Shown here one piece after another: positions 9,058 to 47,826 of a stretch of 48,493 nt of DNA (the stretch's first letter is position 1; each line of letters begins with the position of its first letter). This DNA is from Klebsiella phage vB_Kp3. The stretch is from the sequence record KT367887.1; one strand, given 5' to 3'. Under the pieces are notes generated by a model. It worked only from the letters and a program-made list of their open reading frames with translations, was not told where the DNA came from and did no database searches. The translations under genes were made by a program, and so were the position numbers.

Positions 9058-9270
9058 CTACTCCTTAATGAATTCTTTGAAATCTGCGGACGATGTCTCG
9101 CGCCAGGTCATCAGTCTGCCGTTGATGATCGCGTGACGCTCGCAGTTGTAATCGTCCCTGAATTTCAGAATGGTCATGGTGTTCAGGCCGGTCTTGGTGG
9201 TCAGCTTGCGCATGCTGCCCGCTTTAGCGAGAAGCGCGGGGATGCTTGTAACGTGGCAAATCAGGCTCAT
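9058..9270 (-). CDS. Putative Cro/YdaS-like HTH DNA-binding protein (70 aa)
   Basis: IPALLAKAGSMRKLTTKTGLNTMTI resembles Cro-type HTH. Confidence 0.35.
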   Translation of the reverse strand: MSLICHVTSIPALLAKAGSMRKLTTKTGLNTMTILKFRDDYNCERHAIINGRLMTWRETSSADFKEFIKE

Positions 9271-9280
9271 GTTGTTTTCC

Positions 9281-10942
9281 TCAGTGGTTATCACGGCAGC
9301 TACCCATCAGCGGGGGAACGGCATCTTTGATCGTGTAGTAAGGGTTACGGGCTTCGTGTGGGTTAGACTCTTTGCTCAGGTGTCCCAGCTCAGCCATTTT
9401 GTAAATTGCGTCGCGCACTGACTCCCGGGAATACGGCGAGCCGTCAGCCTTGAACACCGTGGAGCTGATACGGTGCAGGATCTCCTTGTATGGCGCGGTT
9501 CCGTGCGGCTCCGCCCTCAGCAGCGAATACACGGCCTCCTGCAATGGCGTGTACACGTGCGCCTGGCGCTTCTCCTCCGGTTCAAAGTGCTCCTCATCCG
9601 TTCCGGCGTCCATATCGTAAACGCGGTCTTCGAACAGCCAGACCTTCGTCGCGTCGTCGATGTAGATGAAGTCTGGCCGATCGACCTCCTGCCCTGGGGC
9701 AAGTTTCTTCTCATACGTGCTTTTCTTCTTCGCCTCAACGTCCTTCGCGAACACCGGCACCTGAAAGCCTTTGAGCTTAAAGCGCCCCTTCAAACCACCC
9801 TGGCGGCTCTTGCCGACGTTCAGGACAGTGTAGCCTGTCTCCTTCTGGCGGGCGTTCAATCCCTTGCCGGTCTGTGTCTTCTCGCGCACCAGGCTGAACG
9901 TTTTATACACCGCGCCCTTCGCTGCCGAGCCGCCACGAGACTCAAGATCATACTGGCCGGACATCAGGCTTCCCTTGCTGACATGCGGGATGAAGATCCC
10001 GGCGCAGTTGAGGGACTCAGCGAACCGGTGCCCGGCAGTGGTGATCAGCTGCTGGTCGGTGTTGCTATTTTCGTCCATGCTCACGCCGTTATTGTTGGCC
10101 GCCGCCAGGTGGAACATTTTGCTGTCGAAGATGACCAGATTCACCGGCCTGCCGTTGGCGAACTGCAACACGCGACTCTTCTGGATGCGCAACTTTCCTG
10201 GCTCCATCAGGTCGGCCGGGCGCTTGAACACCTTGATCCAGTCACGGAGATTGACGCCGGTGCGCAGCGACCAGGCGGCCACCTGCAACTCAACGCTGTC
10301 CGGGTCTTCGGTGAAGAACACGCTGACGCCCGGGTTACACACGCGGAAGCAGTTGAACAGCGGGCGACCCATGGCGAGGCTGACCGCCATTTGCACCAGC
10401 AGCGTCGTTTTCCCTGCGCCTGCATCACCGTTGATCTCGTTGATGGTGCGACGGTTCAGCAGGCCTTCGATCACCGGGTCATAGAAGTCCGGCGAGGTGT
10501 TCAGCACGTATTCGCCCGGGTCGTAATCTTTCAGCGCTGGATCTTCGACAAGTCCCTGCTCAACCTCTTCGGCGAGACGCTTTGCCACCTCAACGCGCTG
10601 GGCGGATAAGTCCATCCCGAGATTCTGCTTTTCATTCTCCTCGCGAACGATGCGTTGCAGCTCAAGGTGGCGCTGACCGGCGTCTTTCTTCTTCGGCTTA
10701 GGTGGTTCAGGTGGAACAGGTGGCGCTACTTCTTCCGCCTGTTCACGCTCCTCCACCTCAGCACGTGCTACCTGGTCGAAGTAAGCCTGCATGTCGGCCA
10801 TTTCCTGCGAATAGGCTTCGTCCTCTTCCTCGCGGGTCATTGGCTGGTTGAGGATGTCCGCCGCTTCGTGCTGTTTCTCCTGATCGCCCAGTAACGCCTT
10901 CCAGTCGTCGGGCGTCATCGGCCTTTTGTTCTCTTCGTTCAT
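9281..10942 (-). CDS. Replication protein with RecA-fold P-loop ATPase (AAA_25/DnaB-RepA-like) and acidic N-terminus
   Basis: Walker A GDAGAGKTTL; SD AGGAGG 5 nt before ATG 10942. Confidence 0.7.
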   Translation of the reverse strand: MNEENKRPMTPDDWKALLGDQEKQHEAADILNQPMTREEEDEAYSQEMADMQAYFDQVARAEVEEREQAEEVAPPVPPEPPKPKKKDAGQRHLELQRIVREENEKQNLGMDLSAQRVEVAKRLAEEVEQGLVEDPALKDYDPGEYVLNTSPDFYDPVIEGLLNRRTINEINGDAGAGKTTLLVQMAVSLAMGRPLFNCFRVCNPGVSVFFTEDPDSVELQVAAWSLRTGVNLRDWIKVFKRPADLMEPGKLRIQKSRVLQFANGRPVNLVIFDSKMFHLAAANNNGVSMDENSNTDQQLITTAGHRFAESLNCAGIFIPHVSKGSLMSGQYDLESRGGSAAKGAVYKTFSLVREKTQTGKGLNARQKETGYTVLNVGKSRQGGLKGRFKLKGFQVPVFAKDVEAKKKSTYEKKLAPGQEVDRPDFIYIDDATKVWLFEDRVYDMDAGTDEEHFEPEEKRQAHVYTPLQEAVYSLLRAEPHGTAPYKEILHRISSTVFKADGSPYSRESVRDAIYKMAELGHLSKESNPHEARNPYYTIKDAVPPLMGSCRDNH

Positions 10943-10967: not shown

Positions 10968-10996
10968 ATTATTCACGGCAGGTAATACCGTGTCAA
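10968..10996 (-). promoter_or_regulatory. Sigma70 promoter (leftward) for replication gene: -35 TTGACA (10991-10996), 17-nt spacer, -10 AATAAT (10968-10973); inverted half-sites CACGG/CCGTG in spacer
   Basis: Hexamers on minus strand; shares TTGACACGG-ATTA with the 6776 promoter. Confidence 0.5.
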
Positions 10997-11290
10997 TATC
11001 AATTACTTTCCGCCTGAAAAACAGGCTAAAACCTGTAAACCAATACTATTTATAGACTGTAAATACCCGCTATTGGGATTTTCATCACGCCGTTAGTTTT
11101 CAATGGCTTACAGAGTACGTTTTTTGAGCAGCTGTAAACCAAAGCGATTCAAGCGGAGCCACTCACCACCTCAACGCCACCTGAACATCAGGCGGACTTC
11201 GCAAGTTATTGATAACAAAGGACTACCTGAAATTTTCAGGAGGAAAAGGGTCATACTACCGAACTTTTAAGTGTCTGATATTGAAGGGTT

Positions 11291-11312
11291 AATTTCAGGT
11301 GTTAGGTGGTAT
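11291..11312 (+). promoter_or_regulatory. 22-bp element AATTTCAGGTGTTAGGTGGTAT (copy A); 21 nt downstream lies -10 TATAAT (11334-11339), then an imperfect hairpin with T-run (11369-11417) before terS
   Basis: Identical 22-mer found inverted at 28411-28432. Confidence 0.55.
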
Positions 11313-11471
11313 CCCTATTATATATAAAACCCATATAATTACAGAAACACGTACACCCTTACGCACATGGGGGAAGAAAAAAGCGCTACGCAGTGGCTGC
11401 GCGTTTTTATTCTCCCCACCATGCCGTATAGGGGTAAACTGGGGCAGAGCCACTTGAAAGAGGAAACCAAC

Positions 11472-11969
11472 ATGACTGACAAGGTGAAGGTGACGACACC
11501 GCGGAACCCAGTCGGCAGACCAACCAGCTACACCGAGGACATGCCGGAAAAACTCCTTGAATATTTCCGTGTCGACGTTGATGACTATATCCAGCACTCA
11601 CACACGACAGCCGGGAAGAGCAACATTCGCATTAACCCAAAGCACATGCCGTCTATTCTCAACTTCTGCGAGAGCATCGGCATCACGACGACGACTTTTC
11701 ACGACTGGCGTTCGAAGCATAAGCAATTTGCTGTCGCTTACACGCAGGCGCGCGAGCTTTACGAGCAGATGATTCTGAATATTGGCTTCGCCACGAACAG
11801 CACTTTCGCGACCTTCATGCTGAAAGCGAACTTCGGCTACCGCGACAACACTGAGATCGTCGTGACCGGTGACGCCAATAAGCCGGTGCGGTTGAAGATC
11901 GTCAGCGAGCGGCCGAAGGATGAGAAGCCGCGCGAGGAGTCCGAGGCCGTCGACTGGGGTGACGACTAA
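11472..11969 (+). CDS. Terminase small subunit
   Basis: N-terminal PRNPVGRPTSYTEDMPEKLLEYF HTH motif and TFHDWRSKHKQFAVAYTQARE pattern typical of TerS; SD GAGGAAA. Confidence 0.75.
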   Translation: MTDKVKVTTPRNPVGRPTSYTEDMPEKLLEYFRVDVDDYIQHSHTTAGKSNIRINPKHMPSILNFCESIGITTTTFHDWRSKHKQFAVAYTQARELYEQMILNIGFATNSTFATFMLKANFGYRDNTEIVVTGDANKPVRLKIVSERPKDEKPREESEAVDWGDD

Positions 11970-12046: not shown

Positions 12047-13645
12047 ATGACTGAATCACTGAAATTCACCTCCCCGGCACCGGCACCAGTTAGCGGCGTT
12101 CTCGCTTGCGCTTCCCGCGAGGTAGGCGCAGAAAACAATCTCAAGCTGGCGCGCGCCATCGTCGTCGAGGTCGCAGACCGTGGTGCTGAGCAGCACGTGA
12201 AAATCAAGGTTGGCACCCTGCTTGCCCTGGCGCTGGGCCTTGAGGGCGTCATGAAGGTTATGGCGTCGCTTGAGGCTGATCGCGACAGCAAGATCAAGGC
12301 GCTCAGCGAGTGGGAGGTGTTCGGCGTCGAAATGCTTGAGCAGAAGTTCAAGTGCCTGCCGGTGGTCAACATGAAGCCGGAAGAGAAGCGTAAGCGCATT
12401 GCCGCTGGCATAGAAACGATCGTGCAGCGCCTGGATGAGCGCTCAGAAGATCTTTCTGTAGCAGCTGGCAACCTGAACGACTGGCGCACGCACACCCGGC
12501 ACGTCCTGGATACCTACTTCGCCACCTACCCTACCAGCAACGCCAACGACCGCAATCTTCGCCTAATCATGACGGCGGCGATCGAAAGCGCACACAACAA
12601 AAACAAGCAGCTGAACAAGGACTATGACGCCATGCGCAACAGCGCCGACGCATCAGACCAGCTTCGGAAGGCCGCAGAGCGTGAGCGGGACGACGTGATC
12701 AACCTCAACCGCAACGCAGCGGAAGAGATCACCCACTTGCAAGAACGCGCCAAACACCTCGATCAAACCATCGTCGACCTGGTGCGCCAGCGCGACAAGA
12801 ACGGGCAGCAGGCTAACCAGCTGGCTAACGAACTGGTCGAGAAACGCAAGGAGATCAGCAAGCTGTTAGAAATCATTGACCGCCTGCACACAGAGATCGC
12901 AGAGAAGCGCGACATCATCGGCGCAGCAACGCAACGCTGCACTGCGCTCACCAATGACGCGAAGGCGATGAGCAAGAATAACAGCGAACTCGCAGCACGC
13001 CTGGCTAACGCTGGTCTGGAGATCGCCAACTATAAGCAGCTCGTGGAAGACCTGAAAGCAGGCACCGCCGTTGACCGTGACACCGTGAAGCGCCAGGCGG
13101 ACACCATTGATCGCCTGTATGGTCAGCTCAATGAGTGGCACGACTGGGCTACAGACGTCATTTGCAGCCCGTCATCACTGGGCGGGGAATCGCAGCGGAC
13201 TGCCATCACCGCAGCTATGCGCAAGCGCAAGGATCGCATTGAGTCACTGGAGCAGATCGTGAAGGATGTCGTTGCACAGCGTGACGCGTGGGTTATTTGG
13301 GCGCGCGGGTACACCAACGCACCGGCAGGCATTCACAGCACTGAACAACTTCTTTCGATGGTGAAGGCAAAGGTGAAGGCGACCGCAGAGGGCATCGACG
13401 GGCCAGCGGAGCACACCATGTGCGGCACACTGAAAGTCACCCAGCTGAAAGGGGATGTCGTTGCCAGCAATGGAAGCTGGGCCATGCTCAAACATGGCAA
13501 CGCGGTGATCGCCGGAAACATTCCCGCCAGCAAGCTGACCCTGGGCGAGGAGATGAAAGAGGCCATTCGCGAAGTCGTCCGGGAGGAGATGAGCAGCGCG
13601 TTAAAGCAAGCCATCAAGAACGAACTTGATAAGCTGACCATGTAA
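12047..13645 (+). CDS. Large coiled-coil protein of unknown function (532 aa) inserted between terS and terL
   Basis: About 200 aa continuous heptad-like helical region (QLNKDYDAMRNS...LYGQLNEWHDW); no recognizable enzymatic motif. Confidence 0.7.
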   Translation: MTESLKFTSPAPAPVSGVLACASREVGAENNLKLARAIVVEVADRGAEQHVKIKVGTLLALALGLEGVMKVMASLEADRDSKIKALSEWEVFGVEMLEQKFKCLPVVNMKPEEKRKRIAAGIETIVQRLDERSEDLSVAAGNLNDWRTHTRHVLDTYFATYPTSNANDRNLRLIMTAAIESAHNKNKQLNKDYDAMRNSADASDQLRKAAERERDDVINLNRNAAEEITHLQERAKHLDQTIVDLVRQRDKNGQQANQLANELVEKRKEISKLLEIIDRLHTEIAEKRDIIGAATQRCTALTNDAKAMSKNNSELAARLANAGLEIANYKQLVEDLKAGTAVDRDTVKRQADTIDRLYGQLNEWHDWATDVICSPSSLGGESQRTAITAAMRKRKDRIESLEQIVKDVVAQRDAWVIWARGYTNAPAGIHSTEQLLSMVKAKVKATAEGIDGPAEHTMCGTLKVTQLKGDVVASNGSWAMLKHGNAVIAGNIPASKLTLGEEMKEAIREVVREEMSSALKQAIKNELDKLTM

Positions 13646-26561: not shown

Positions 26562-26924
26562 ATGGCTACATTAGACGCGTGGATCTGGCCGCTGGCGGCA
26601 GGTCAACAGGTATCAGTGAAAGACCGCAGCCGGTCGAACAGCTTCGGCGACGGCTCGCAGCAAAGCGTTTTGGAAGGCATCAACCCGTTCATTATGGAGG
26701 TGCCCTGCTCGTGGACTGGCAACGCTAAGACCGGCAACCAGATCCTATCCTTCCTGAAAGCGCACATCACCAACCCGTTCCAGATGGTTCCGCCGCATGG
26801 CGAACTGGGCCTTTACACCGTGAAATCAGGCACGATCAAATATGTCGCGCTGGGACGTGCAACCATGAACATTACCTTCACAGCCGAGCAGGCCGTGGGC
26901 ATCTACACAGGGGTGAAAGGATGA
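26562..26924 (+). CDS. Minor tail protein M (lambda gpM-like)
   Basis: FGDGSQQS... resembles lambda M (FGDGYSQR); 120 aa; position. Confidence 0.7.
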   Translation: MATLDAWIWPLAAGQQVSVKDRSRSNSFGDGSQQSVLEGINPFIMEVPCSWTGNAKTGNQILSFLKAHITNPFQMVPPHGELGLYTVKSGTIKYVALGRATMNITFTAEQAVGIYTGVKG

Positions 26925-28186
26925 GCAACACCATTTTCGACGAAGCCACAAAGCTCGACCCGTCTGGCAAGATCATCCTCATGGAGATCGACGGAACCGA
27001 GTTCGGCGCGGGGATCATCCGGGGCCACTATTGCCAGCTCCCGCACACGAGCAAGGAGATCCTCGACAGTGCGAACAGCACGTTAACCCGCGATCAGCTG
27101 TTCAAGTGCTATGGCGGACGCGGGACGGTGACGAAGAACGAAGACCGGAACACAATCAACTTCAAATCGTCAGCAGCTGACGCGAACCTGCTGCTGCCTT
27201 CGTTCACCGGCGGCCTGACTGGTAGCAAATATCAGGTGATCGAGGTGGTGGGTCGCTGGATCACTCCTCCTTCCGGGTCGGATAACCTGTATACGATCTA
27301 TTACAAGACCGCAGCGCATGATTTTTCCCCCAGCTACAACAAGGGCGGGTCGTTGGCGAGCGTAACCGAAGATCTTGGTGATGGCTGGCTGAAATTCTCG
27401 TTCGACATGTCGAAGCTGAGCGCTGGCGGTTCAGACTGGGTAAACAGCCAGATTATCGGCATCCGCATTGACCTGTGGCAGCAGGCGGTCGGCGAGATCG
27501 AGATCAAGCGAATCAGCATCCTGAACAAGAACCCGCACGAGGTTGACGCGTCCAAGCTGGCACCGAAGTCAATCTGGTTCGACAACGTCGAATATGGCTA
27601 TTGGCCGTTTATGGCTGAGGGGATCGAGTTCAGCAGCGAGCAGCAGGGGACGCCTACCCTGTCCATTGGCAACCAGTCGGGGGTCGTCAGCGCCTACCTG
27701 CGCGCCTATCAGCAGATGGTAGGGGCAAAGGTCAAGATCATCCAGACCTACGCGAAGTTTCTCGATCCGCGCAACTTCACCGATGGAAACGAGTTCGCCG
27801 ACTCAATGCAGCAGTGGACGCAGCTTTACTACATCGATCGGCCAGACTATGAGAGTGAAGAGTATGTGCGGTTCGCGCTGTCGTCTCCGCTCGACTTACA
27901 GAACTTTCAGGTGCCAACGCGGCAGATCACGACGTTCTGTCAGTGGCAGGCCCGCGGGCTTTACGGAAAAGGCCTGGACGCCGGGGAAGAAAACGGGTGC
28001 AGCTGGAACCGCGGCACGGCCTCGAAGTGGTACGACAAGCACGGGAACCAGGTGGACGACATCACGAAGGATGAGTGCGGTGGGTGCATTCAGGATTGCC
28101 GCCTACGCTTTGGCCAGCTGGTGAGTGACCCAAAAGCGGCCGTTCTGGACTACGGCGGTTTTATCTCTGTGCGCCTGATTGATTAA
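26921..28186 (+). CDS. Minor tail protein L (lambda gpL-like) with roughly 190-aa internal insertion
   Basis: C-terminus DITKDECGGCIQDCRLRFGQ matches lambda L DITKDKCSKCLSGCKFRN (Fe-S cysteine cluster); 421 vs 232 aa. Confidence 0.75.
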   Translation: MSNTIFDEATKLDPSGKIILMEIDGTEFGAGIIRGHYCQLPHTSKEILDSANSTLTRDQLFKCYGGRGTVTKNEDRNTINFKSSAADANLLLPSFTGGLTGSKYQVIEVVGRWITPPSGSDNLYTIYYKTAAHDFSPSYNKGGSLASVTEDLGDGWLKFSFDMSKLSAGGSDWVNSQIIGIRIDLWQQAVGEIEIKRISILNKNPHEVDASKLAPKSIWFDNVEYGYWPFMAEGIEFSSEQQGTPTLSIGNQSGVVSAYLRAYQQMVGAKVKIIQTYAKFLDPRNFTDGNEFADSMQQWTQLYYIDRPDYESEEYVRFALSSPLDLQNFQVPTRQITTFCQWQARGLYGKGLDAGEENGCSWNRGTASKWYDKHGNQVDDITKDECGGCIQDCRLRFGQLVSDPKAAVLDYGGFISVRLID

Positions 28187-28330
28187 ACGCGCTGTATCGC
28201 GTTCTGCGGCGTTTTCTTGCGTAAGACGTCCGAACGTATGGCCTGACGGCGTTAAACGCGACAGCGTGCCGTTCAGGCCCGTAGTTTTCGATTCACGAAG
28301 ATAAGAATACATCCCATAGCCATATATAAT

Positions 28331-28360
28331 AAAAACCCTCCCAAGGGAGTTTTATTTATA
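28331..28360. terminator. Bidirectional terminator (A-run, CTCCC-AA-GGGAG, T-run) inside L-K intergenic region
   Basis: Seen in sequence. Confidence 0.55.
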
Positions 28361-28410
28361 TGGTCTTGGGTATGTCTTATATGTATTTATGGTAATAAAT
28401 ATATATACCC

Positions 28411-28432
28411 ATACCACCTAACACCTGAAATT
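28411..28432 (-). promoter_or_regulatory. 22-bp element copy B (reverse complement of 11291-11312), flanked by AT-rich TATATATA on its minus-strand downstream side
   Basis: 22/22 identity with copy A. Confidence 0.55.
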
Positions 28433-28486
28433 CAGCATTGTAAATCAATGGTTTAAAATTTCAGGTGGTGCCAAGTGGAGGCAAAA

Positions 28487-29236
28487 ATGATTGACGTAAA
28501 TGACATCCCGGAACAGCAATTAACCTATATTAAACAACACCTTACAGAGTGTTCGCCGCAAGAGGGCTGCGGGCTGCTGGTGAATTCAGGCGGAGGCCTC
28601 GAATACTGGCCTGTCATCAACTCAGCAGCCGACAAAATGAACAGTTTTCGCATTGCACCGCAGGACTTCGCTGAGGCTGAGGACGCAGGCAATATCGTTG
28701 CCGTCATCCATTCACACCCTGGCGCTGACGGTCTGGCTTATCCGTCCATCCTCGATCGCCAGCTCATGCAGGAAACTTGCTTACCGTGGTTCATCTACGC
28801 CCCGGACAAGGATGAGCTGGCCGTGTTCTTTGAGGAGCCGAAGGGGCTGCTGGGTCGTGACTTTGTGCTGGGCGCTACCGACTGCTATGGCCTGGTGATG
28901 GCGTGGCACCGTTCGCGAGGCATTCAGCTCCCTGACTTCCGCAAGCCGTACCCGTGGTGGGAGAAGGGTGAGGAGCTTTTCACGGATGAGAATTTTTCAG
29001 CAGCGGGATTTATCAAGAAGGCCGAGGCAGAGCCGGGCGACATGGTGGTGTTCCGTATCGCGTCCAGCGTAAGCAATCACTGCGGGATCTACACCGGCGA
29101 CGGGATGATTATGCACCACCTCATGAACCGCAAATCGACCATTGATAGGATGTATGGCACCTACCTTGAGCCGCGCATTACTGGTATTCTCCGACATGAG
29201 TTACTACCGGAGATCACACCATGGGAAACCAGCTAA
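28487..29236 (+). CDS. Tail tip assembly protein K (JAMM/MPN + NlpC/P60)
   Basis: HSHPGADGLAYPSILD JAMM-like motif and TDCYGLV NlpC/P60 Cys motif; SD GGAGG. Confidence 0.8.
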   Translation: MIDVNDIPEQQLTYIKQHLTECSPQEGCGLLVNSGGGLEYWPVINSAADKMNSFRIAPQDFAEAEDAGNIVAVIHSHPGADGLAYPSILDRQLMQETCLPWFIYAPDKDELAVFFEEPKGLLGRDFVLGATDCYGLVMAWHRSRGIQLPDFRKPYPWWEKGEELFTDENFSAAGFIKKAEAEPGDMVVFRIASSVSNHCGIYTGDGMIMHHLMNRKSTIDRMYGTYLEPRITGILRHELLPEITPWETS

Positions 29237-29820
29237 GCACCATCCGACTGTACGGCGAAATGGGGGCGCGCTTCGGGCGCGTCCATCACCTCGCGGTCGA
29301 CTCCTGCGCCGAAGCAATCAGCGCCCTTTCCGCCATCATCCCCGGATTCGATCAATACATGCGAGACAGCCAGTCTCGCGGCCTGACCTTCGCCCCTTTC
29401 ATCGGAAAGCGGAACATCGGCTTCAATGAGATGTCGCAGCCAATCCCTGACGGCGAAGAATTCCGCATTGCCCCGATCATCATCGGCAACAAGAAGGGCG
29501 GCCTGTTCCAGACCATCCTGGGCGCTGCGATGATTGTCGCGGGCGTCGTGGCGTCGTTCATCCCCGGCGGGCAGGCTGTCTCCCCTTACCTCGTTGCTGC
29601 TGGTATCTCCACGGCTGCTGGCGGGGTTATGCAGATGCTTTCCCCGCAGGCGACAGGCATGAAGATCCGGGAGAATGACGCCAACGCGCCGTCATACGCC
29701 TTCGGCCAGCCGGTTAACACGACAGCACAAGGTAACATCGTTGGCGTTTTGTATGGCGAGCGTGAGATCGGGGGTGCTATCATCAGCGCCGGAATTATCG
29801 CTAACGAGGTACGTTCTTAA
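29221..29820 (+). CDS. Tail tip assembly protein I
   Basis: N-terminus resembles lambda gpI (LYGEMGARFGRVHHLAVDSCAEAISALSAIIPGF). Confidence 0.7.
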   Translation: MGNQLSTIRLYGEMGARFGRVHHLAVDSCAEAISALSAIIPGFDQYMRDSQSRGLTFAPFIGKRNIGFNEMSQPIPDGEEFRIAPIIIGNKKGGLFQTILGAAMIVAGVVASFIPGGQAVSPYLVAAGISTAAGGVMQMLSPQATGMKIRENDANAPSYAFGQPVNTTAQGNIVGVLYGEREIGGAIISAGIIANEVRS

Positions 29821-32800
29821 TGGAAATCAAAGGATACAAGGGCGGGAGTAGCAACGTGCATACCCCCGTTGAAGATCCAGACTCCCTGATCAGCAACGCA
29901 ACGGTAAGGATGCTCCTGGCGTTGTCAGAGGGTGAAACCGTGCCGATTAGCGCGGAAGACCTGCCCAAGCGCGTTTACATGGACGGGACGCCCGTTCAGA
30001 ACGATGATGGGTCGGTAAACATTCCGGGCGTAACACTGGAATATCGCAACGGCACCCCGCAGCAGGAGCCGATCAACGGCTTCCCGGCGGTGGAAAGTGA
30101 AACACGAATCAATGTGGAGCTGAAAAAGTCTTCTGCATGGGTGCGTAACATCACCAACACCGAGATCGACGCCGTCCGCATCCGAATGAATTTCCGGCTG
30201 GTCATCCAGCAGAAGGACGGGGATCGCGTAGGCGGACGCATTGAGTACCGGATTGAATACCGCAAAGTCGGCGACAGCACCTACACCGTGGCCTTCAATG
30301 GTGCTGTCGACGGCAAGCAGAAAGACAACTATGAACGCGATCACCGCATCGACCTGCCGAAGAGCAGCACTGGCTGGCAAATCCGCGTGACCCGCCTAAC
30401 TGACGACAGCACGTCTGATACCACCGTGCTCAACTCCGGGATCGTGGCTGTCACCGAGATCGTCGACGCCCGCGTTCGTTACCCGTGGACGTCCCTTCTG
30501 TTCGTCAGCTTCGACGCCAAATCGTTCCAGAACATCCCGAAAATCAGCATCAAGATGGGCGGCCGTCTGGTACTGGTTCCGTCCAACTATGACCCTGTTA
30601 ACCACACCTACAGCGGGTCGTGGAACGGGACATTTAAACAGGCGTGGACGGATAACCCGGCGTGGATCGTCTACGACATCATTCTGCACAAGCGCTTCGG
30701 TATTGGCCGCCGTATCCCGTCCTCATTCCTGAACAAATGGACGATGTACAGCATCGCACAGCGCTGCGATGAGCTGGTGACGAACGCCGACGGCACGCAG
30801 AATCGCCGTTACACCTGTAACGTGTATATCCAGAAACGCGCGCATGCGTGGAGCGTCATTCGTGACCTGGCGTCGATCTTTAACGGAATGGTCAGCTACA
30901 GCAACATGCAGCTTCAATTTGCGCAGGATGCACCGGCAGAAGTCCGCCATGTTGTGACAAACGACGACGTCGTGAACGGAACGTTCGAGTATTCCTACGG
31001 CAGCATGGCTAACCGCCGCGGGATCGCGATGGTCACTTTTGACGACCCGAAGGCGCACTATAAGACGCAGACCACTGTGGCGCAGATCAAAGACCTCGTG
31101 GAGCGTTATGGCGTTGAGCCGCTGGAAGTGTCCGGCATCGGCTGCACGGACGAATACGAAGCGCAACGTCGTGGCCTGTGGGCGCTGCTGTCGAACACCA
31201 ACGACATGCAGATCAGCTACCGCGTCGGCCTGAACGGCATCAAGTACCTGATCGGCGACGTCGTCGGCATCGCTAACCGCTACGTGCAGGGCGGTCAGTT
31301 CGGCGGGCGTGTTGCTGGCGTATCCGGCACCACCATCACCACCGACCGCATGATCTCCGACCACGTGGCAATCGGCGACAGAGTGATCGTTCGTCAAGCT
31401 GGATCGGATGGAACCTACAACCGCGTGATCAATGCAATCGCGGCTGACCGGATGTCCTTCACCGTCGACGGCACTAACCTTGATATTCAGAGCGGTGAAG
31501 TGTTCCTGCTGGATACTAAGGTGCTGGCACCTGAACTAATCCGCATCACCAAGATCACCTACAACGAGCAGGACAATAATTTCACCGTTACCGGTCTGCA
31601 ATACAGCCACTCGAAGTATTTGCAGGTTGACACCGGCGCGCGAATTGAAGACCGCCCGACATCGCTGATCCCGACCGGGCAGGTACAGGCACCCGCTAAC
31701 GTGGTGGCCGAAGGCTACAGTATCGTTAACCAGGGGATTCGCTCAGCTAACGTAAACTGTTCATGGTTCACCGTAGATCAGGCCGTCAGCTACGACATTC
31801 AGGTGCGCCGAACCTCTCAGTCAAACGGCCAGTGGTCACAGGGGTGGACTAACCTTGCCAGCCAGTCAAGCACGTCCGTTGACCTGACAAACGTTCTGAC
31901 CGGCACCTATCAGTTCCGCGTTCGTTCCGTATCCCGTGACGGCGGTTCGTCTCAGTGGGTCGAGTCGAATCAGGTGTTCGTTGACGGCAAGCGTGGCAGC
32001 ATCCCGGCAGTAGCTGGCCTGAACGGCGTAGGCATCGTTAACGGCATTACCTGGCGTTGGGTGACTGGCACGGATGATCTGATCGATATGAAGTCGACAG
32101 AGCTACAGTTCCAGCGCATTGACGGCAATGGTGCTCCGGTTGGTGATTGGATCGATCTCAGCGTCGTGACCTACCCTACCGGGACGTTCACACAGTCCGG
32201 CCTGAAATTTGCCGAACGCGTGCAGGTGCGCGCCCGCTTTGTGTCGTCATATAGCGATGCTGGCGAGTGGAGCGCCCCGGTCATGGCGATGACGTCCGAC
32301 AACATGGACGACTATTACCAGAACATCGACGACGCGATCAAAGGCTCCGACACCTACGGCGAACTTACCAGCGGCATCAAAGACGTAAGCGACAGCGCAC
32401 AGGCAGCGAAAGACGCCGCGCAGGCCGCGCAGGTTACTGCTGACGGAGCAGTGACAACCAACCAGCAGCAGCAGCAGCAGCTGAACAACCAGCTGGCCGA
32501 GATCCAGAAGAACGCGCAGGACATCACCAACACCGCTAACGCGGGGGCGGCAAACGCCAGTGCAATCGCTCAGGAGATCCTTGATCGCAAGGCTGGCGAC
32601 ATCGCGAACGCCAACAAGGCAGCTCAGGACGTGGCCGACGCTATCGCGAAGGCTGAGACGGATGACGCACAGGTGGCAGCTGACGCAGCGGCCAACCTGC
32701 TGACAGCGAAGAACGAAGTAGAAGCGCAGATCAGCACCACCAATACCACAATGCAGGACGGCTTCGACAGCCTGGCGCAGCAGATGGCATCCATTTCCGC

Positions 32801-35800
32801 TGGCACCGGCGAGCAGTTCGACAGCCTCGCTATCTGGTACTTCGACAACGGCCCGGAAGGGTGGGCTTCTGACGACGCCAACACCAATCTGCTCCCCGTA
32901 GACCAAGATGGCTGGATTTACCCTGCTGGCGCAGCATCCACCATGCGCTCACCTAACCCGCTGGCAATCGACGCGCGCAGCTATAAGTACATGCGCCTGC
33001 GCATGAAGCGAGTCGGGAACCCGTCATGGTCTGGCAGGCTGTATTGGATCGGCGTGGATGAGACTGGCTGGACAAGTGGCCGCTCAATTGCCATTCCGGC
33101 ACCTGACTTTGACCCGGCCACCGGGATCACTGTCCTGTCGATCCCCGATCTTCTGTGGGCGACATCCGGCACCGTGCGCCGCCTGCGCTTTGACTTCTCA
33201 AACAATCAGGACGCCAATAACTACTACGCCGTCGACTGGATGGCAGTAGGACGACCGACCCCGGGCGCGTCACAGGCACAGGTTCAGGATCTTCGCACCG
33301 CCATGACCGCGGCGGACTCAGCCGAAGCCGCAGCGCGCAACACACTGGCCGTTCAGCTCCGCGGGAACTATGAGGGAACCGACCCTTCCAAGCTGGTGAC
33401 TGGCATCATCTTCAACGAGCGCCAGACCCGCGTCACCGCAGAGCAGGCGATCGCCAGCGACGTCAACACCCTGCGCACTGACTACAACGCGAACAAGGCC
33501 GCCGTGACCCAGCGTCTCGACACGCTGACCAGCGAGAACCAATCGCAGGCGCAAGCGCTTACCCAGCTTCAAAGCGGTCTGACTGACGCTAACGGAAAGA
33601 TCGGCGCTAACGCTACAGCCATCAGCCAGATCAAAACAGACGTGACGGCGCTGGATGGTCGAGTATCGGCAAATAGCGGTCTGATCACTAACCTGCGCAG
33701 TGACCTGAATAACATGCGCGTCGGCGGCACCAACCTGATCCCTAACTCTGGCACGCTAGCAGGCGTCAGCGGCGTTGTGCAGGGTCAGACGTACAAAGGC
33801 AATGCTATCCGTCGCATCGCGATTGCAGCAGCCTCAGCCGGCTCCTACGACCAATTTGAGTATGAGCTTGCGGCTCCGATCGACGGAACCGAAGTAGTCG
33901 TCAGCTTCTACGCGAAAGCGAACAACGCCGACAGCAAGCAAATTTTCGTCTACCTGTACAACCCGAACGCCACGCTTACGGCTTTAAGTAGTCAGGGTAA
34001 AACTGGTAGCTGGGCTACTGGTGGCGATGGTTCGATGACAATCGACCTTACGGAAGACTGGGCGCGCTACTGGGTGAAATACACTCGTAAAAGCGGACAA
34101 ACTGGAAGCACCCGGGTCATCTTAGGCCGACTGCTGAAAGGGTCTAAGGACAAAGAGGTTTACATCAGCTCGCCTAAATTCGAATACGGCACCATGCCTA
34201 CCGAATGGAGCGAAGCACCGGCTGACAATGCCAGCGCAAGCGCGTTGCAGGCACTGACCACGCGTGTCACTGCGGCGGAAGGCACCATCAGCACCAACAG
34301 CCAGGCGATCACCCAGCTCAAAGGCGACGTGAGCACCTTACAGGGTCAGGTGGCTACCAAGGCCGAAGCGAGCGCATTGCAGCAGCTGGCGACTACTGTC
34401 ACCCAGCAGGGGAACACCATCTCTTCGCAGGGTCAGGCCATCACCGACTTGCAGAACACCGCGCAGAACGGTAAAGCGAACTACTGGCTGACCAAGATCT
34501 TCGATATCAAAGGGGGCGGTAGCGGGTACATTCCTAAGCTGTCCGACCTGTCTGGCGTTCCTCCGCTGGCCGTGTCCGAGATGGCTGACGCTGCAAAGCT
34601 GGACTTCCTGACTTACGGCGACTACAAAATCGCGTATGCGAAGGCGCTGGTGTATGTCGCGGCTGACAAGACAATCGCTATCACCCCCGGCTCCCGCATC
34701 GTGGACGACACCGGCCGACTGTATGTCAATGGGGTGGAAACGGCATCCTTTGGCGCCAGCACTGGCAACTACAGCCTGTCGCTAAAAAAAGGCTGGAACA
34801 CGCTTGAGTTCGTGGTTGCGCAGATCACCGGTCAGTTCTATATCAACTTTGGACTCAAGCTGTCCGATAACGTCGATCAGATGTTCAGTGGTGCCGGTCA
34901 GCTGGCCGCTGCATCCGCCTCGCAGGTGCTCTCCTCTCAGGTTGAGCAGACCTCCGGGAAGGTTGACGCGAACAGTGCCGCGATCGTCACTCTGAACAAC
35001 TCGGTGAGGGACATCAACACCGCGCTGAACAACAAGGCTGACGCGAGCGCGTTGCAGTCGCTGACTACCCGTGTCACCACCGCAGAAGGGAAGATCACGG
35101 CTCAGGGCAATGCAATTACCCAGCTCACCAGCGACCTGTCGACAGCGAACGGGAAGATCTCCGCTAACTCAACGGCGATCAATAACCTGACGACCCGGGT
35201 CAGCGCAGCCGAAGGGAAGATTGACTCACAGGCTGAGTCCATCACCTCGATCAACTCATCTATCAAGGGCGTACTGACCCAAGCGGCCAACCTTATCCCT
35301 AACCCGACGGTAGACCCGGCCTATTCGCAAATGGGCATGACCGTTGTTTCCACAACGTCAGAAGGCGTTCCGGCTGGATGCCCTTACCCGTGGGCGATTA
35401 AATGCCAGTACCGCGATCACGTCCCGGGTATGAACAACATCCCTTGTCGCGAAGGTCAGGTGTTTGAGTTCTCTGTACTGGCCGCATGCGGCACCGGCTC
35501 CGCACCGTTCCAGCACTACATCGGTACGTCGACTCTGGTTTCTGGCAGCATCGGGTCGCCACAAGCGAACGGAGGCCAAATCTCAGCGGCTACCGGCGCG
35601 CAGTGGACGCGCACTACATGGCGCTGGACAGTAAACGCGGAGCATGGGGCGAAGGGTTACTTCCGTCCATTCCTGCAAATCGCGCAGGCAGGCCCGGGCT
35701 ACGGGACAGTATGGTATGCAACTGACTGGAGCGTTCGCGACGTCACCGCAGCGGCGAAGGCAGAAGGCAAGGCAGACGCCAACGCCACGGCGATCAGTCA

Positions 35801-38800
35801 GCTGACAACCCGCGTTACTTCTGCGGAAGGGTCGATCACGTCTCAGGGTCAGGCCATTACCAAACTGACCAGCGATCTGAGTACGCTGACCGGCGTCGTG
35901 AACAATAAGGCTGACGCTTCGGCGCTGAATGCGCTCACTACCCGCGTATCGACTGCCGAAGGCAAGATCGATTCACAGGGTCAGTCGATCACCCAGCTGA
36001 GCAATAGCCTGTCCGCAACTGACGCCTCAATCGACGCGCAGGGCAAGATCCCCGGGAACCTGCTGGCTAACTCATCGTTTGAGCGCGGCCCGGTTAACTT
36101 CACCGGCTGGAGCAGCCTTGCCACCATCATCACGGCAACACAGCCGCATTCTGGCACCAAAATTGTCAAGATGGCGGCAGGCGGAAGTGCTGGAATCAGT
36201 CAGGCCGTTGAAATCACGCAGGGCCGCCGGTATCGCTTCGGCGTGTTTGCCAAACAGGACGCCGGGACTACCATCAACGATCCGGGTAACACGAAATTCC
36301 GTATCGCTGAGGAATCAGGCAGTCTTCTTGTCGGCACGAATTACGGCCCGTTCACTGGCACATGGCAGCACGTCTTCATGGACTGGACGGCTACGAAGAC
36401 CACCACCGCGCTGTTCCAGCTGACTACATGGCTGAGCGCTGGCGCGATGTACTTCGACGATGTCTACGTTGTCGACATCACCAACGACACCAAGATTCAG
36501 GCGAACGCTGACGCGATCACCTCGCTGAACACGAAAGTGACCCAGCAGGGTAACGACATCACGTCGCAGGGTAGCGCGATCACCCAGCTGACCAACCGCG
36601 TGCGCACTGAGCAGTACAGCAACAGCAACCCGTGGGTAGATGGCTCGTTCGAGTCGTATGACAACCAGCAAGCCATCGGTGGATCTAATGGCCTGGTCAC
36701 TACTGACTTCTCATTCAGTGGTCAGAAGTCGCTTATGTGTCGCCGCGCCAACGGTGAAACCGGCAACTCTGACAAGACTTTAGGGTATGAAACAGCCATT
36801 CGCGAGTCTGCGGTTTACCGCTTCGAATGCTGGGCGATGATGCCGGAAGATGAGACGCCGCCGGAAGGGTGGAACTGTGTTGTGGGCTTGATGGTTCGCA
36901 CCGCAGCCAACCAGAACGCATGGCCTAGCGCATTCGTCATCACAGAGTCAGGGCTTGCTGCTGGTGGCGGTCGTGGTAAGTGGGTCAAGTTCTCCGGCAA
37001 AGTAGGCGTAGGCGGCGGACAGAAGACACGAGGCCGTCTGTGGATCTCCACTCGCGGCACATCCGGCGGCCCTGGATATAGCATCTATATCGACGATCTG
37101 GTGATCACCGACGTTACCGACGCTCATGCAGCACAGACCACCGCAGACGCTAACTCAAGCGCGATCAACAGCCTGACCAGCCGTGTGAGCACCGCAGAAG
37201 GGCAGATCACATCTCAGGCAGACGCGATCACCAAGCTGAACGGTGACGTTAGCACCATCAACGGCACGCTGAGCCAGAAGGCTGACGCCAGCGCAGTCAC
37301 CGCACTGCAAACGCGCGTGACCACCGCAGAAGGCCAAATCGCGAGCAATGGCACGGCCATCACCAACCTGAATAACGGCCTGGAAGCACAGCGACGCACC
37401 GGTGAAAACCTCGTGCAGAACTATGACTTCATGCAAGGCGACACCGCATTCAGCGTGCAGCGGGATAGTTTCAGCACAGTAACGTTCGGCGACTACGGAG
37501 ATGGCAAGCCAGGCGTGCGCATGGTGAAAGTCAACGCCACATCGCCCGGCCTGTTCGCGAACAACAAAAAGCCGGTGCCGCAGAACGGCCAGCGCCGCTA
37601 TCGCTATGTTGTGCGCGCGAAGTCCGTAAGCGGTGGGAATAACCTTCTTATGCGTCGCTGGAATTTCAACGGCTCCGTAGAAGGCTCTTATACAGACAGG
37701 AACAACGCGCTTACAACTGACTGGCAGACCCTGACGTGGGAAACCGATCTCACCCCGGCAAGCGGATTTGACGGTTCAGCGTTCGGCCTGTATTGCCACC
37801 CGTCTAACGCGGAAGTGTGGATCGACTCGTTCAAGGTGTACGACATCACCGAAGAGCTGACGATCAAGGCTAACAGCGCGGCGATCAACAGCCTGACCAC
37901 CACCGTCACCCAGCAGGGCCAGGACATCACCGCGCAGTCGAACGCGCTCACGCAGCTGAAATCCAGCCTGACTAATGACGCGGTAGCGCTGGCAGCGAAC
38001 CCGGATAACATGCTGACGAACACCGGCTTCGAGCGTGGAACGGACAACTGGGTAGGATGGAGTTCACGCGCCGACGTCTACGCAGCACAAGAACCGAAGT
38101 CAGGCGCAATGATCCTGCGTGGTAAATCCGGCGGTAACGCGTCAATCGGTCAGAATGTTCTGAGCGTGAAAGCTGGCCGCACCTACCGGTTCGGCGGATA
38201 TGTGAAACGCACAGCTGATATGGCGATCGGCCCAAACACCGTAGGGAACAACAAATTCCGCCTTGGTAACGCGACCACCGGCGCTGGCCCTATTTCTGAG
38301 CTGAACTTCTCAGAAGCGAATATCGGCACTAGCTGGACGCTGATCACTAAGGACTTTGTCCCGACGTCTGATATTGACGTTGCCTATTCGATCAACTGGA
38401 ACCTTGCTACCGGTGAGATCTACTTTGATGACGTGTTCTTTATCGACGTCACCGACGAGATCAATAACGCGGCCAATGCTACAGCCATCAGCAACTTGAC
38501 CACCCGAGTTACTACGGCAGAGGGCAAAATCACGTCGCAGGGAACGGCGATCACTCAGCTGACCGCAGACCTCAGCACCGCGAACGGGAAGATCACGGCG
38601 AACTCCAACGCGATCACCAGCCTGCAATCGACTGTCACCCAGCAGGGCAATACGCTGACCTCTCAGGGCCAGGCGATTACCAAGCTGAATAGCGACCTGT
38701 CTGACCTGTCTGGCGTGGTGGACACGAAGGCCAGCGCTTCGGCACTGAATTCCCTGACTACCCGCGTCACCAATGCGGAAGGCAAGATCACCGCGAACAG

Positions 38801-41309: not shown

Positions 41310-41513
41310 TTATTCACCCTCTACTTTAACGAGTTCATGCCATTCGATGCCCAGGGGCTTCGCAAGGCGGATCATGGTTTCAATGGTCGGGAACTCACGG
41401 CCATTGTCATAACGGCATACGCGGCACTGCGCAATGCCTGCTGCTTTCGCCAGACCACGCTGGGAAAACCCAGCGCGCTCGCGGTGCTCTTTCAAAATCA
41501 GTGTAATGGTCAT
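41310..41513 (-). CDS. XRE-family (Cro/CI-type) HTH transcriptional regulator
   Basis: FSQRGLAKAAGIAQCRVCRYDNG HTH_3 motif. Confidence 0.7.
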   Translation of the reverse strand: MTITLILKEHRERAGFSQRGLAKAAGIAQCRVCRYDNGREFPTIETMIRLAKPLGIEWHELVKVEGE

Positions 41514-46768: not shown

Positions 46769-47335
46769 ATGATGAATATTGGCAAACTACCCGAACCAGA
46801 AATTCACGAGGGCGCGATACAGCGGGCTTTTGTGCGTTCTATGGGCAACTCATTCCAGATCATGATCCCGAACTACTACACCCCGGACAACCTGGGCTAT
46901 GAGGCTGATATGTTCTGCATCCGCAAGAGCCGCTACACGGTGGAGGTGGAGGTGAAGATCTCCATCTCTGACATGAAGGCCGACTTCCGCAAGGCCCACA
47001 CGATCTACCCGAAGACGGCGGAGGAGGCTGAGAAATATTGGCGGCGAGTTGACGGCGAGCGCATCCCGTACCCGGTGAAGATGAAGCACGACTGTCTGAA
47101 AGCTGGTGAGCTGATAGCCAATCGCTTCTACTTCCTGGTGCCGTGGACTATCGCCGACAGGGCGCGGGAGATCCTGCCGGACTATGCCGGGCTTTACGTG
47201 TACAACCAGCGAGGACTGGTACACGAGGAAAAGATGGGGCCGATGCTGCACAAGCGTAAGCTCGATCCGAAATATGACCAGGGGATCATGGCAAACCTCA
47301 ACGCCCGCTACCTGAATCTGTGGGGGAGGCCATGA
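46769..47335 (+). CDS. Hypothetical protein (188 aa) with possible PD-(D/E)XK motif (EADMFC...EVEVK)
   Basis: Divergent from helicase gene; ATGA overlap with next gene. Confidence 0.5.
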   Translation: MMNIGKLPEPEIHEGAIQRAFVRSMGNSFQIMIPNYYTPDNLGYEADMFCIRKSRYTVEVEVKISISDMKADFRKAHTIYPKTAEEAEKYWRRVDGERIPYPVKMKHDCLKAGELIANRFYFLVPWTIADRAREILPDYAGLYVYNQRGLVHEEKMGPMLHKRKLDPKYDQGIMANLNARYLNLWGRP

Positions 47336-47826
47336 AGTTCTACCCCATTGAGCAGATAGAACGACTCATGGTCGGGCGCTGGGAAGTGCTGCTATCCCAG
47401 TATTGGGATAAGCGCGCATTCAACGGCAGGCATCAGGCCTGCCCGCTGTGCGGAGGGAACGACCGGTTCCGCTGGGGCGAATCGAAGCAGGACGTCACGA
47501 TGAAGGGTCGCGGTGCTGCAATTTGCAATCAGTGCGGATCACACCTGGGCCTGTGGTGGTTCATGCAAACTACCGGCTACGAATTCCCGGTGGCGCTGCA
47601 TGAGATAGGGGCCAACTTCCTCAAGGTCGAGCCTGACCAGGAAATGACGACCGAGCCGGTGATCGCCCGCGACGCATTCCCGAAGGCTCCGCGCGTCAGG
47701 CTGGAAGAGAAAAACTTATCAGCCTCTCAGAAGTACATCCGCAAGCAGCAGGCCGCGCCTGACTATGATCGCCGGTTCTGGATGGCCTACGACCTGATCG
47801 AGACGATGCGCAAATATCACATGTGA
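47332..47826 (+). CDS. Stand-alone primase-type zinc-ribbon (Prim_Zn_Ribbon-like) protein
   Basis: CPLCGGNDRFRW...CNQCG matches zinc-binding domain of T7 gp4/P4 alpha primases; no TOPRIM domain. Confidence 0.6.
   Translation: MKFYPIEQIERLMVGRWEVLLSQYWDKRAFNGRHQACPLCGGNDRFRWGESKQDVTMKGRGAAICNQCGSHLGLWWFMQTTGYEFPVALHEIGANFLKVEPDQEMTTEPVIARDAFPKAPRVRLEEKNLSASQKYIRKQQAAPDYDRRFWMAYDLIETMRKYHM

Follow-up and report, generated by a model that had tools for sequence, protein, structure and literature searches.

Twin repeat and AT-rich modules of Klebsiella phage vB_Kp3 as candidate origin-type loci

Described systems and the layout of the window

The subject of this work is a 22-nt element, AATTTCAGGTGTTAGGTGGTAT, that occurs twice in the genome of Klebsiella phage vB_Kp3 (KT367887.1; 48,493 nt, one strand, the whole stretch being called the window): copy A upstream of terS, beside the gene of a RepA-like helicase, and copy B in the gap between the L-like and K-like tail genes. 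The window is the circularly permuted genome of a lytic Klebsiella siphovirus of an unclassified group. Several described systems are of a related design. The alpha protein of P4 is a helicase whose C-terminal winged helix recognises repeated octamers in two separate cis regions, several kb from each other; we know of no report of an arrangement of integration host factor (IHF) site, AT block and hairpin of the window's kind in P4. The oriV of RSF1010/IncQ plasmids contains iterons, an AT-rich region and hairpin ssi sites, the iterons being bound by RepC and the hairpins serving as entry sites of the RepB' primase. The lambdoid pR' region consists of a Q-binding element, the 6S RNA and tR'; differing, phage-specific Q-binding elements are found among lambdoid phages.

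Bacillus phage SPP1 has two origins of one design, each with repeats and an AT-rich unwinding element. One lies at the gene of the initiator; the other is intergenic, amid late genes, with transcription signals on both sides. For this second copy it was proposed that bound initiator stalls the fork and starts a recombination-dependent switch to concatemers (PMC6316719). Rep of the staphylococcal pathogenicity islands (SaPIs) is a self-loading helicase, the winged-helix C-terminal domain of which reads lineage-specific iterons around an AT region beside rep (PMC9371898).

In the window, the two loci are, with about even probability, a pair of origin-type modules that bind an initiator, a self-loading RepA-like helicase; they would be twin origins as in SPP1, or one origin and one fork barrier. 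We infer that the winged-helix domain of the helicase binds the sites and that replication starts or stalls there. The helicase would act as its own initiator, its winged-helix C-terminal domain recognising the sites; IHF would fold the distal and proximal sites together, the AT tract would open and the helicase would load. The weaker site beside the helicase promoter would allow autoregulation; iteron replicons typically have such a site at the promoter of their initiator. Module B, 17 kb off in the L–K gap and facing module A, would be a second origin or, alternatively, an initiator-bound barrier (cf. SPP1 oriR), at which the fork would stall with a recombination-dependent switch to concatemer synthesis. 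The TATATA block may also give rise to a short terminated transcript, which could help the opening. The features concerned are listed below; locus A is the 530-nt divergent region between the leftward helicase gene and terS (11472–11969), and locus B is the 300-nt gap between the L-like (26921–28186) and K-like (28487–29236) tail genes.

9281–10942, minus strand: 553-aa RepA-like (AAA_25) helicase, the candidate binder; adjoins module A
~9320–9550, minus strand: coding part of the winged-helix C-terminal domain of the helicase (predicted fold; domain aa ~441–553)
10968–10996, minus strand: sigma-70 promoter of the helicase gene, TTGACA-17-AATAAT; 11/12 consensus matches
11011–11021, minus strand: degenerate core copy, a candidate for autoregulation; lies 14 nt upstream of the helicase promoter −35
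11178–11188, minus strand: degenerate core site with two mismatches (CACCTGAACAT on the plus strand)
11202–11214, minus strand: IHF consensus of locus A, perfect match
11224–11242: distal part of module A, head-to-head pair of degenerate cores, TACCTGAAATTTTCAGGAG
11268–11280: IHF-like site of locus A, one mismatch, at the spacer position equivalent to that of the module B IHF site
11291–11312, plus strand: copy A, proximal site; core AATTTCAGGTG (11291–11301) and second AGGTG box; exact match
11316–11355, plus strand: AT block of module A, holding TATTAT (11316–11321) and TATAAT (11334–11339)
11369–11417, strandless: long hairpin separating module A from terS, with an A-run and a T-run in its arms
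28310–28374: 65-nt palindrome of module B; its core, CTCCC..GGGAG flanked by A and T runs, is a hairpin resembling a bidirectional terminator
28375–28407, minus strand: AT block of module B, candidate DNA unwinding element, holding TATATA (28407–28402)
28411–28432, minus strand: copy B, proximal site of the second, leftward module; exact reverse complement of copy A
28443–28455, plus strand: IHF consensus AATCAATGGTTTA, in the module B spacer that separates the distal from the proximal site
28457–28467, plus strand: distal core site of module B, exact 11-mer AATTTCAGGTG, opposite in orientation to the proximal site, the two centres 35 bp apart

The window resembles SPP1 oriL/oriR in its two distant repeat and AT copies, one at the helicase gene and one in the L–K gap, in AT islands that are the strongest compositional bias of the genome, and in a RecE/Erf/SSB/resolvase-type recombination set suited to a theta-to-sigma switch (RecE-like, Erf, SSB and VRR-NUC proteins are encoded). 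It differs in that SPP1 has a separate binder (gp38), loader (gp39) and DnaB-type helicase (gp40), whereas the putative binder of the window is fused to the helicase; no gp38- or gp39-like protein was found among the 30 proteins (early, middle and uncharacterised) covered by the Pfam scan. Furthermore, oriL lies inside gene 38 and the window module is intergenic, the host of the window phage is Gram-negative, IHF sites are present, and there is no sequence similarity. With SaPI Rep the helicase shares the domain order (N-terminal, ATPase, winged-helix C-terminal domain), sites of opposite orientation near the rep/helicase gene, and a specificity that varies between related elements. SaPI Reps and P4 alpha are SF3/AAA+ proteins, whereas the core of the window helicase is of the AAA_25 / RSF1010 RepA-like type with a RecA fold (best PDB sequence match 1g8y, weak, E 0.067); it is thus outside the SaPI Rep/P4 alpha family and shares with it the working principle alone. 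The SaPI iterons lie on both sides of the AT region, downstream of rep; the window sites are all on one side, with an IHF site intervening and a second distant copy. P4 is similar in its winged-helix helicase and in ori/crr as two separate cis regions, and different in that alpha joins a primase to the SF3 helicase and crr consists of direct 120-bp repeats. IncQ plasmids have a helicase core of the same family (the weak match given above) and the same order of repeats, AT-rich tract and hairpin palindrome, but there a separate protein, RepC, binds the iterons. The likeness to lambdoid pR' comprises a phage-specific element upstream of a −10, a terminator within ~90 nt, a position ahead of late genes and, in copy A, a second −10-like hexamer in the early transcribed region; the window lacks a −35 and a Q-family protein, its second copy is antisense to late genes, and it adds distal sites, IHF sites and a long AT tract.

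Sites, AT tracts and hairpins and their conservation

Repeated sites: Both copies of the 22-mer were found where the sequence-only reading had placed them. No further copy was found in the window at ≤3 mismatches (0 expected, 100 shuffles). The 11-nt core has 6 matches in the window at ≤1 mismatch vs 0.5 expected; 4 of them, including all three exact copies, lie in the two loci, the 2 others (one mismatch each) fall within the L gene, and additional copies with two mismatches are also located in the two loci. The motif copies thus cluster in the non-coding DNA of both loci, as an iteron-type origin would require; in the relative JVSB2 the exact 13-mers of the genome are likewise located in the two loci (5/5). 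The core sites are isolated, of monomer type and of mixed orientation and spacing, which suits a hexamer with six winged helices better than a dimeric helix-turn-helix (HTH) repressor.

AT tracts and IHF sites: The −10-like hexamers TATTAT (A) and TATATA (B) stand at the same spacing (+4 to +9) past both 22-mers; TATAAT was confirmed 21 nt past copy A, and the TATATAT run noted after copy B, TATATATAT, was located at 28407–28399 on the minus strand. Copy B is without a good equivalent of this second hexamer of copy A. The most AT-rich 40-mer of the window is 28375–28414, and 28374–28414 is its least stable 41-mer (~4.9 standard deviations from the mean); the module A block is second in the window for AT content and for duplex instability. 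Both blocks directly abut the 22-mers and deviate by more than 4 standard deviations from the window mean. The AT tract is 30–35 nt long, and TTATATATA is invariant across all A modules. The IHF consensus WATCAANNNNTTR has only two perfect matches in the window, one per locus (11202–11214 and 28443–28455).

Hairpins: The hairpins with T-runs that had been described past both copies are present, with cores at 11369–11417 (A) and 28335–28348 (B); on the reading strand, hairpin and T-run occupy 11389–11410 and 28335–28326, respectively, as for an intrinsic terminator shortly downstream. RNA folding gave −30.5 kcal/mol (z −3.0) for 11322–11430 and −25.4 kcal/mol (z −3.7) for the module B palindrome. 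The module A hairpin has 15 conserved pairs, 4 of them with compensatory changes (7 divergent relatives), and the arms of the module B palindrome are retained with altered sequence in JVSB2, L021 and K70.

Comparison of relatives: Loci A and B were compared in nine full genomes and several metagenomic contigs, close relatives of the window phage being P85_2, phiKp_14 and MUC-5 and more distant ones EKq1, HSE3, PMBT64, JVSB2, Diencephalon and K70PH128C1. Every genome or contig has the same layout, which both loci keep in at least 15 relatives: distal site(s), IHF spacer, proximal site, AT tract and long hairpin, the arms of which include an A-run and a T-run. The spacer carries TAAGnnATTGAT, the reverse complement of the IHF consensus; a perfect match was found in the module B spacer of 10/13 B loci scanned, the exceptions being EKq1, HSE3 and Diencephalon. 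The proximal site begins with AATTTC, followed by ~10 variable bases, 3–5 G/C and (T)TATATAT within the AT tract. Copy B is leftward in every genome compared. The layout is kept at syntenic positions although the flanking proteins are 56–58% identical (L protein of JVSB2 vs window, 58%); the L–K gap is absent in L020, a more distant phage. In IMG/VR the exact 22-mer is confined to two near-identical contigs, and a search with the K protein gave close relatives and one distant locus, nothing more.

A search for the 22-mer in related phages had been proposed as a check of its function; it showed that the element and its layout are either conserved or replaced in concert, the copy A site being in all relatives conserved or swapped for a lineage-specific equivalent. 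The site types were as follows.

AGGTG: the window, MUC-5, KPLY1, K49
AGGCG variant: KPJD2 (AGGCG/AGGTG sites, AGGTG-type distal half-sites)
AGGGG: KPAJ1, Op1 and the L021 contig, the last on a JVSB2-like backbone
GCGGAA: EKq1, HSE3
GGAAGTC: JVSB2, Diencephalon
GCGTAAAA: K70PH128C1, L017
GCGTGTAGC: L018, L019
GAGGG: L024

A and B of the same genome carry one type in 5/5 types with both loci available; two further types are known at A alone. The distal sites match the proximal type: that of module B covaries with its proximal site (CACCTGAAATT, CCCCTGAA, TTCCGCGAA, by lineage), and the relatives carry equivalent module A distal sites of their own type. The helicase-promoter site is also of the lineage's type, i.e. 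CACCTGAAAT in MUC-5, CCCCTGAAAA in KPAJ1, TTCCGCGAAA in EKq1 and AATTTCGGAAGTC in JVSB2. This concerted change at A, B and the helicase-promoter site rules out chance or neutral duplication; the 22-mer is clearly a functional element, and the pattern shows that all three places are read by one phage-specific DNA-binding factor. A chance match or a neutral duplication of recent date, for which the presence of just two full copies might speak, has a negligible probability: zero matches were expected, and the syntenic layout and the concerted site change already refute it.

Other conserved stretches of locus A: Between the 22-mer and the start codon of terS lie 160 nt (11313–11471) that are near-invariant among AGGTG-type and AGGGG-type phages, whereas the terS protein just 3' differs by 16% and the upstream DNA occurs in unrelated versions, which points either to a recombination boundary that is sharp or to very strong constraint. 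Two unrelated versions of the left half of locus A exist among phages otherwise 97–99% identical. A second repeated motif of the locus, TGTAAAC / TGTAAAT (11034–11040, 11058–11064, 11133–11139), was found in all site types (e.g. CTTGTAAAC, GGTGTAAAT, CCTGTAAAC in EKq1) and is therefore not lineage-specific.

The candidate binder of the sites

A helicase with a predicted DNA-binding domain is encoded beside the repeats; the primase gene of the phage is at 47320–47826. Its core is invariant and the substitutions are concentrated in the C-terminal winged helix. Within one site type (window vs K49 or KPJD2) the winged helix shows 9–11 synonymous changes and one amino-acid change, with a synonymous rate (dS) of 0.18–0.23; between types its nonsynonymous rate (dN) is 0.065 (AGGGG) and 0.35 (GCGGAA), 10–12x that of the helicase core. 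The residues that vary occupy the second helix, the wing and a single face of the third helix, and 7 winged-helix variants pair one-to-one with 7 site variants. Among the DNA-binding domains examined, that of the helicase alone follows the site switches, which is a correlation and no proof; the winged-helix domain is on this account the proposed binder of the sites.

The regulators put forward earlier, viz. the HTH protein at 2102–2356, the protein at 2353–2880 and the XRE protein at 41310–41513, were not borne out: none tracks the lineage-specific site changes. XRE was rejected since KPJD2 (AGGCG/AGGTG) and KPAJ1 (AGGGG) have the same XRE protein; AGGTG and GGAAGTC phages have almost the same XRE recognition helix. 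In the NinH-like protein (9058–9294) and the 84-aa HTH protein (2102–2356) the HTH is almost unchanged between AGGTG and GCGGAA phages. The 175-aa protein (2353–2880) is without a DNA-binding signature; the 175-aa, 130-aa and 219-aa proteins were discarded as either not following the site types or having an unchanged HTH. TerS was rejected too: it is identical in K49 (AGGTG) and Op1 (AGGGG) despite different sites, and 83% identical between the window and K49, which have the same site type. Sequence searches of the 175-aa and 84-aa proteins against PDB, and NCBIfam, gave nothing useful; a D..EVK motif seen by eye in the 175-aa protein suggests a PD-(D/E)XK nuclease.

The site types track the overall phylogeny, 1420 nucleotide positions dividing AGGTG-type from AGGGG-type phages, and this weighs against the assignment and against the origin reading built on it. 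Genome-wide diagnostic single-nucleotide polymorphisms between these two types failed to single out a binder because the groups differ everywhere. No recombinant that splits the helicase domain from XRE or other genes was found among the GenBank phages searched, so that the assignment to the helicase domain rests on the substitution pattern.

Weighing of the explanations and neighbouring features

The distal sites, the IHF sites, the helicase-promoter site and the covariation of the helicase fit an origin module better than a promoter. In distant helicase homologues (32% identity; L025 7560–7860, L026 7480–7760) the gene likewise has an IHF consensus, tandem ACTCGC-type repeats and an AT-rich tract behind it; an AT-rich palindrome, ATATATATCTATATAGATATATAT, stands after the gene in both, and these genomes have a separate 24-nt element, GTTTAGCAAAAAGTGCTATT, in direct and inverted copies ~3 kb apart. 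The cumulative GC skew of the window turns from rising to falling at ~29100, ~0.6 kb right of module B and within co-oriented genes, and a turn near module B recurs in EKq1, KPAJ1, K49 and Op1. Several points tell against an origin. The skew turn is a weak one, and JVSB2 lacks it. The DnaA box TTWTNCACA occurs nowhere in the window, though in locus A of some relatives (a perfect box, TTATCCACA, is found in the helicase–terS intergenic region of L007, L013, L015, L024 and L029). Two facing modules are not needed by a simple bidirectional origin. The terminator-like hairpin of module A is easiest to understand if met by rightward transcription, the late operon is without any other recognisable promoter, and the TATAAT 13–18 nt past the first −10-like hexamer in A modules recalls a lambdoid sigma-dependent pause.

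These last three points are shared with the arrangement favoured by the sequence-only reading, taken here as one in which each module is a regulator-dependent late promoter without a −35, the 22-mer binds an activator or Q-like antiterminator, and the leader stops at the hairpin; copy A would drive terS and the morphogenesis genes, and copy B would make an antisense or small RNA of ~70 nt (~50 nt by the sequence-only estimate). Its AT block, −10-like hexamers and hairpin stood, and the layout proved conserved; a −35 was not found, nor was a Q-type factor in the 30 proteins scanned. We regard it as possible though doubtful. It accounts for the identical spacing of the −10-like hexamers after both 22-mers, for the conservation of the second hexamer in most A modules and for terminator-like hairpins with T-runs 60–90 nt downstream, and the variation of the sites could be akin to that of lambdoid Q-binding elements. 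The early regions hold seven near-consensus sigma-70 promoters, and the late region (11–41 kb) has just three weak 9/12 matches, fewer than the 8.0 that shuffles would give, and none is in a plausible position to drive the late operon; a 30-kb late region without its own sigma-70 consensus promoter makes a late promoter in locus A plausible. Several internal terminators of the late region and one before the holin suggest antitermination control. On the other side, neither module has a −35 or a TG extension and the consensus scan called no promoter at either; no Pfam match to Q antiterminator, sigma or RNA polymerase families was obtained in the 30 proteins, though an antiterminator of a novel family may be among them, and the candidate regulators do not follow the site types. 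The directions assigned to the copies held (A towards terS, B leftward and antisense to L), but copy B is directed at no gene and in all relatives runs antisense to the tail genes; antiterminated transcription starting there would collide with the late operon. A promoter also leaves the distal, IHF and helicase-promoter sites unexplained, an AT tract of 30–35 nt far exceeds the need of a −10, and the Rfam scan of the whole window gave zero matches. A sigma-54 promoter was rejected by eye (no GC at −12).

Origin and promoter are not mutually exclusive and may coexist; a promoter embedded in an origin and making a short terminated RNA would have counterparts in T4, T7 or lambda oop. A single module with two jobs, in which the helicase would open the AT tract and control an embedded promoter without a −35, thereby coupling late transcription (A) and an antisense RNA or fork barrier (B) to replication, is a tentative and rather unlikely proposal. 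It is improbable that the sites are merely operators of a phage transcription factor (XRE or an unrecognised one) that block the helicase promoter, the late-operon entry and the L–K gap and have no replication role. One site adjoins the −35 of the helicase promoter, the head-to-head half-site pair at 11224–11242 resembles a classical operator, and the XRE recognition helix differs between AGGTG-type and GCGGAA-type phages; against operators stand the failure of XRE to follow the site types described above, sites that are mostly single half-sites of variable orientation and spacing, and the AT extremes and IHF sites, which operators leave unexplained. Terminase recognition sites (pac or cos-type) with an IHF bend are very improbable. 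In lambda cosB the sites flank an IHF site (R3-I1-R2); the inverted sites around an IHF site resemble this, and copy A is just upstream of terS, but terS does not follow the site type (K49/Op1), the second copy lies among tail genes without packaging logic, and terS is P22 gp3-like (PF16677) while three GenBank records start inside it. The records of KPAJ1, KPJD2 and KPLY1 (L012–L014) begin and end within terS at about residue 84 (~11720), which suggests that the pac site may be within terS. A DNA-invertase crossover site was discarded (no recombinase, all relatives collinear), as was a mobile repeat (miniature inverted-repeat transposable element), the positions being syntenic in all relatives.

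The modules give precise coordinates for candidate origins and/or late promoters in an unclassified group of ~40 Klebsiella phages that are therapy candidates, and the at least 7 matched site/winged-helix variants are a natural specificity-swap set for initiator–site co-evolution; the published papers on EKq1, HSE3 and PMBT64 hold no transcript, terminus or origin data. If the origin reading is true, an SF4 RepA-like helicase loading via its own winged helix would extend self-loading beyond SF3 (SaPIs, P4, eukaryotic viruses), and, with copy B serving as a fork barrier in the tail operon, the SPP1 model would extend to phages of Gram-negative hosts. If the modules serve both functions, they would form a replication-coupled late switch and theta-to-sigma trigger of a kind undescribed for Gram-negative siphoviruses, with the first SF4 helicase as its own sequence-specific initiator.

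Neighbouring features: The non-coding stretch 28189–28300 after the L gene holds conserved hairpins; that at 28240–28279 (GGCCTGACGGC...GCCGTTCAGGCC) is retained in JVSB2 with a compensatory G>A / C>T change and may be a structured RNA or an extra terminator. A 69-aa minus-strand open reading frame (28103–28312) over these hairpins is not conserved. A strong terminator-like hairpin stands at 2901–2926, between the gene of the 175-aa protein and the holin gene, so that the lysis genes are also behind a terminator. The start of a long reading frame at 11367, used in many GenBank records, is unsupported in view of stop codons there in EKq1. Between terS and terL, a 532-aa protein (12047–13645; no Pfam match) is 36–54% identical among phages ~95% identical elsewhere and is thus a hypervariable gene of the packaging module. 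The J-like central tail protein (29820–39896) has 3358 aa in the window, 3381 in EKq1, 3187 in L021/L028 and 2328 in JVSB2.

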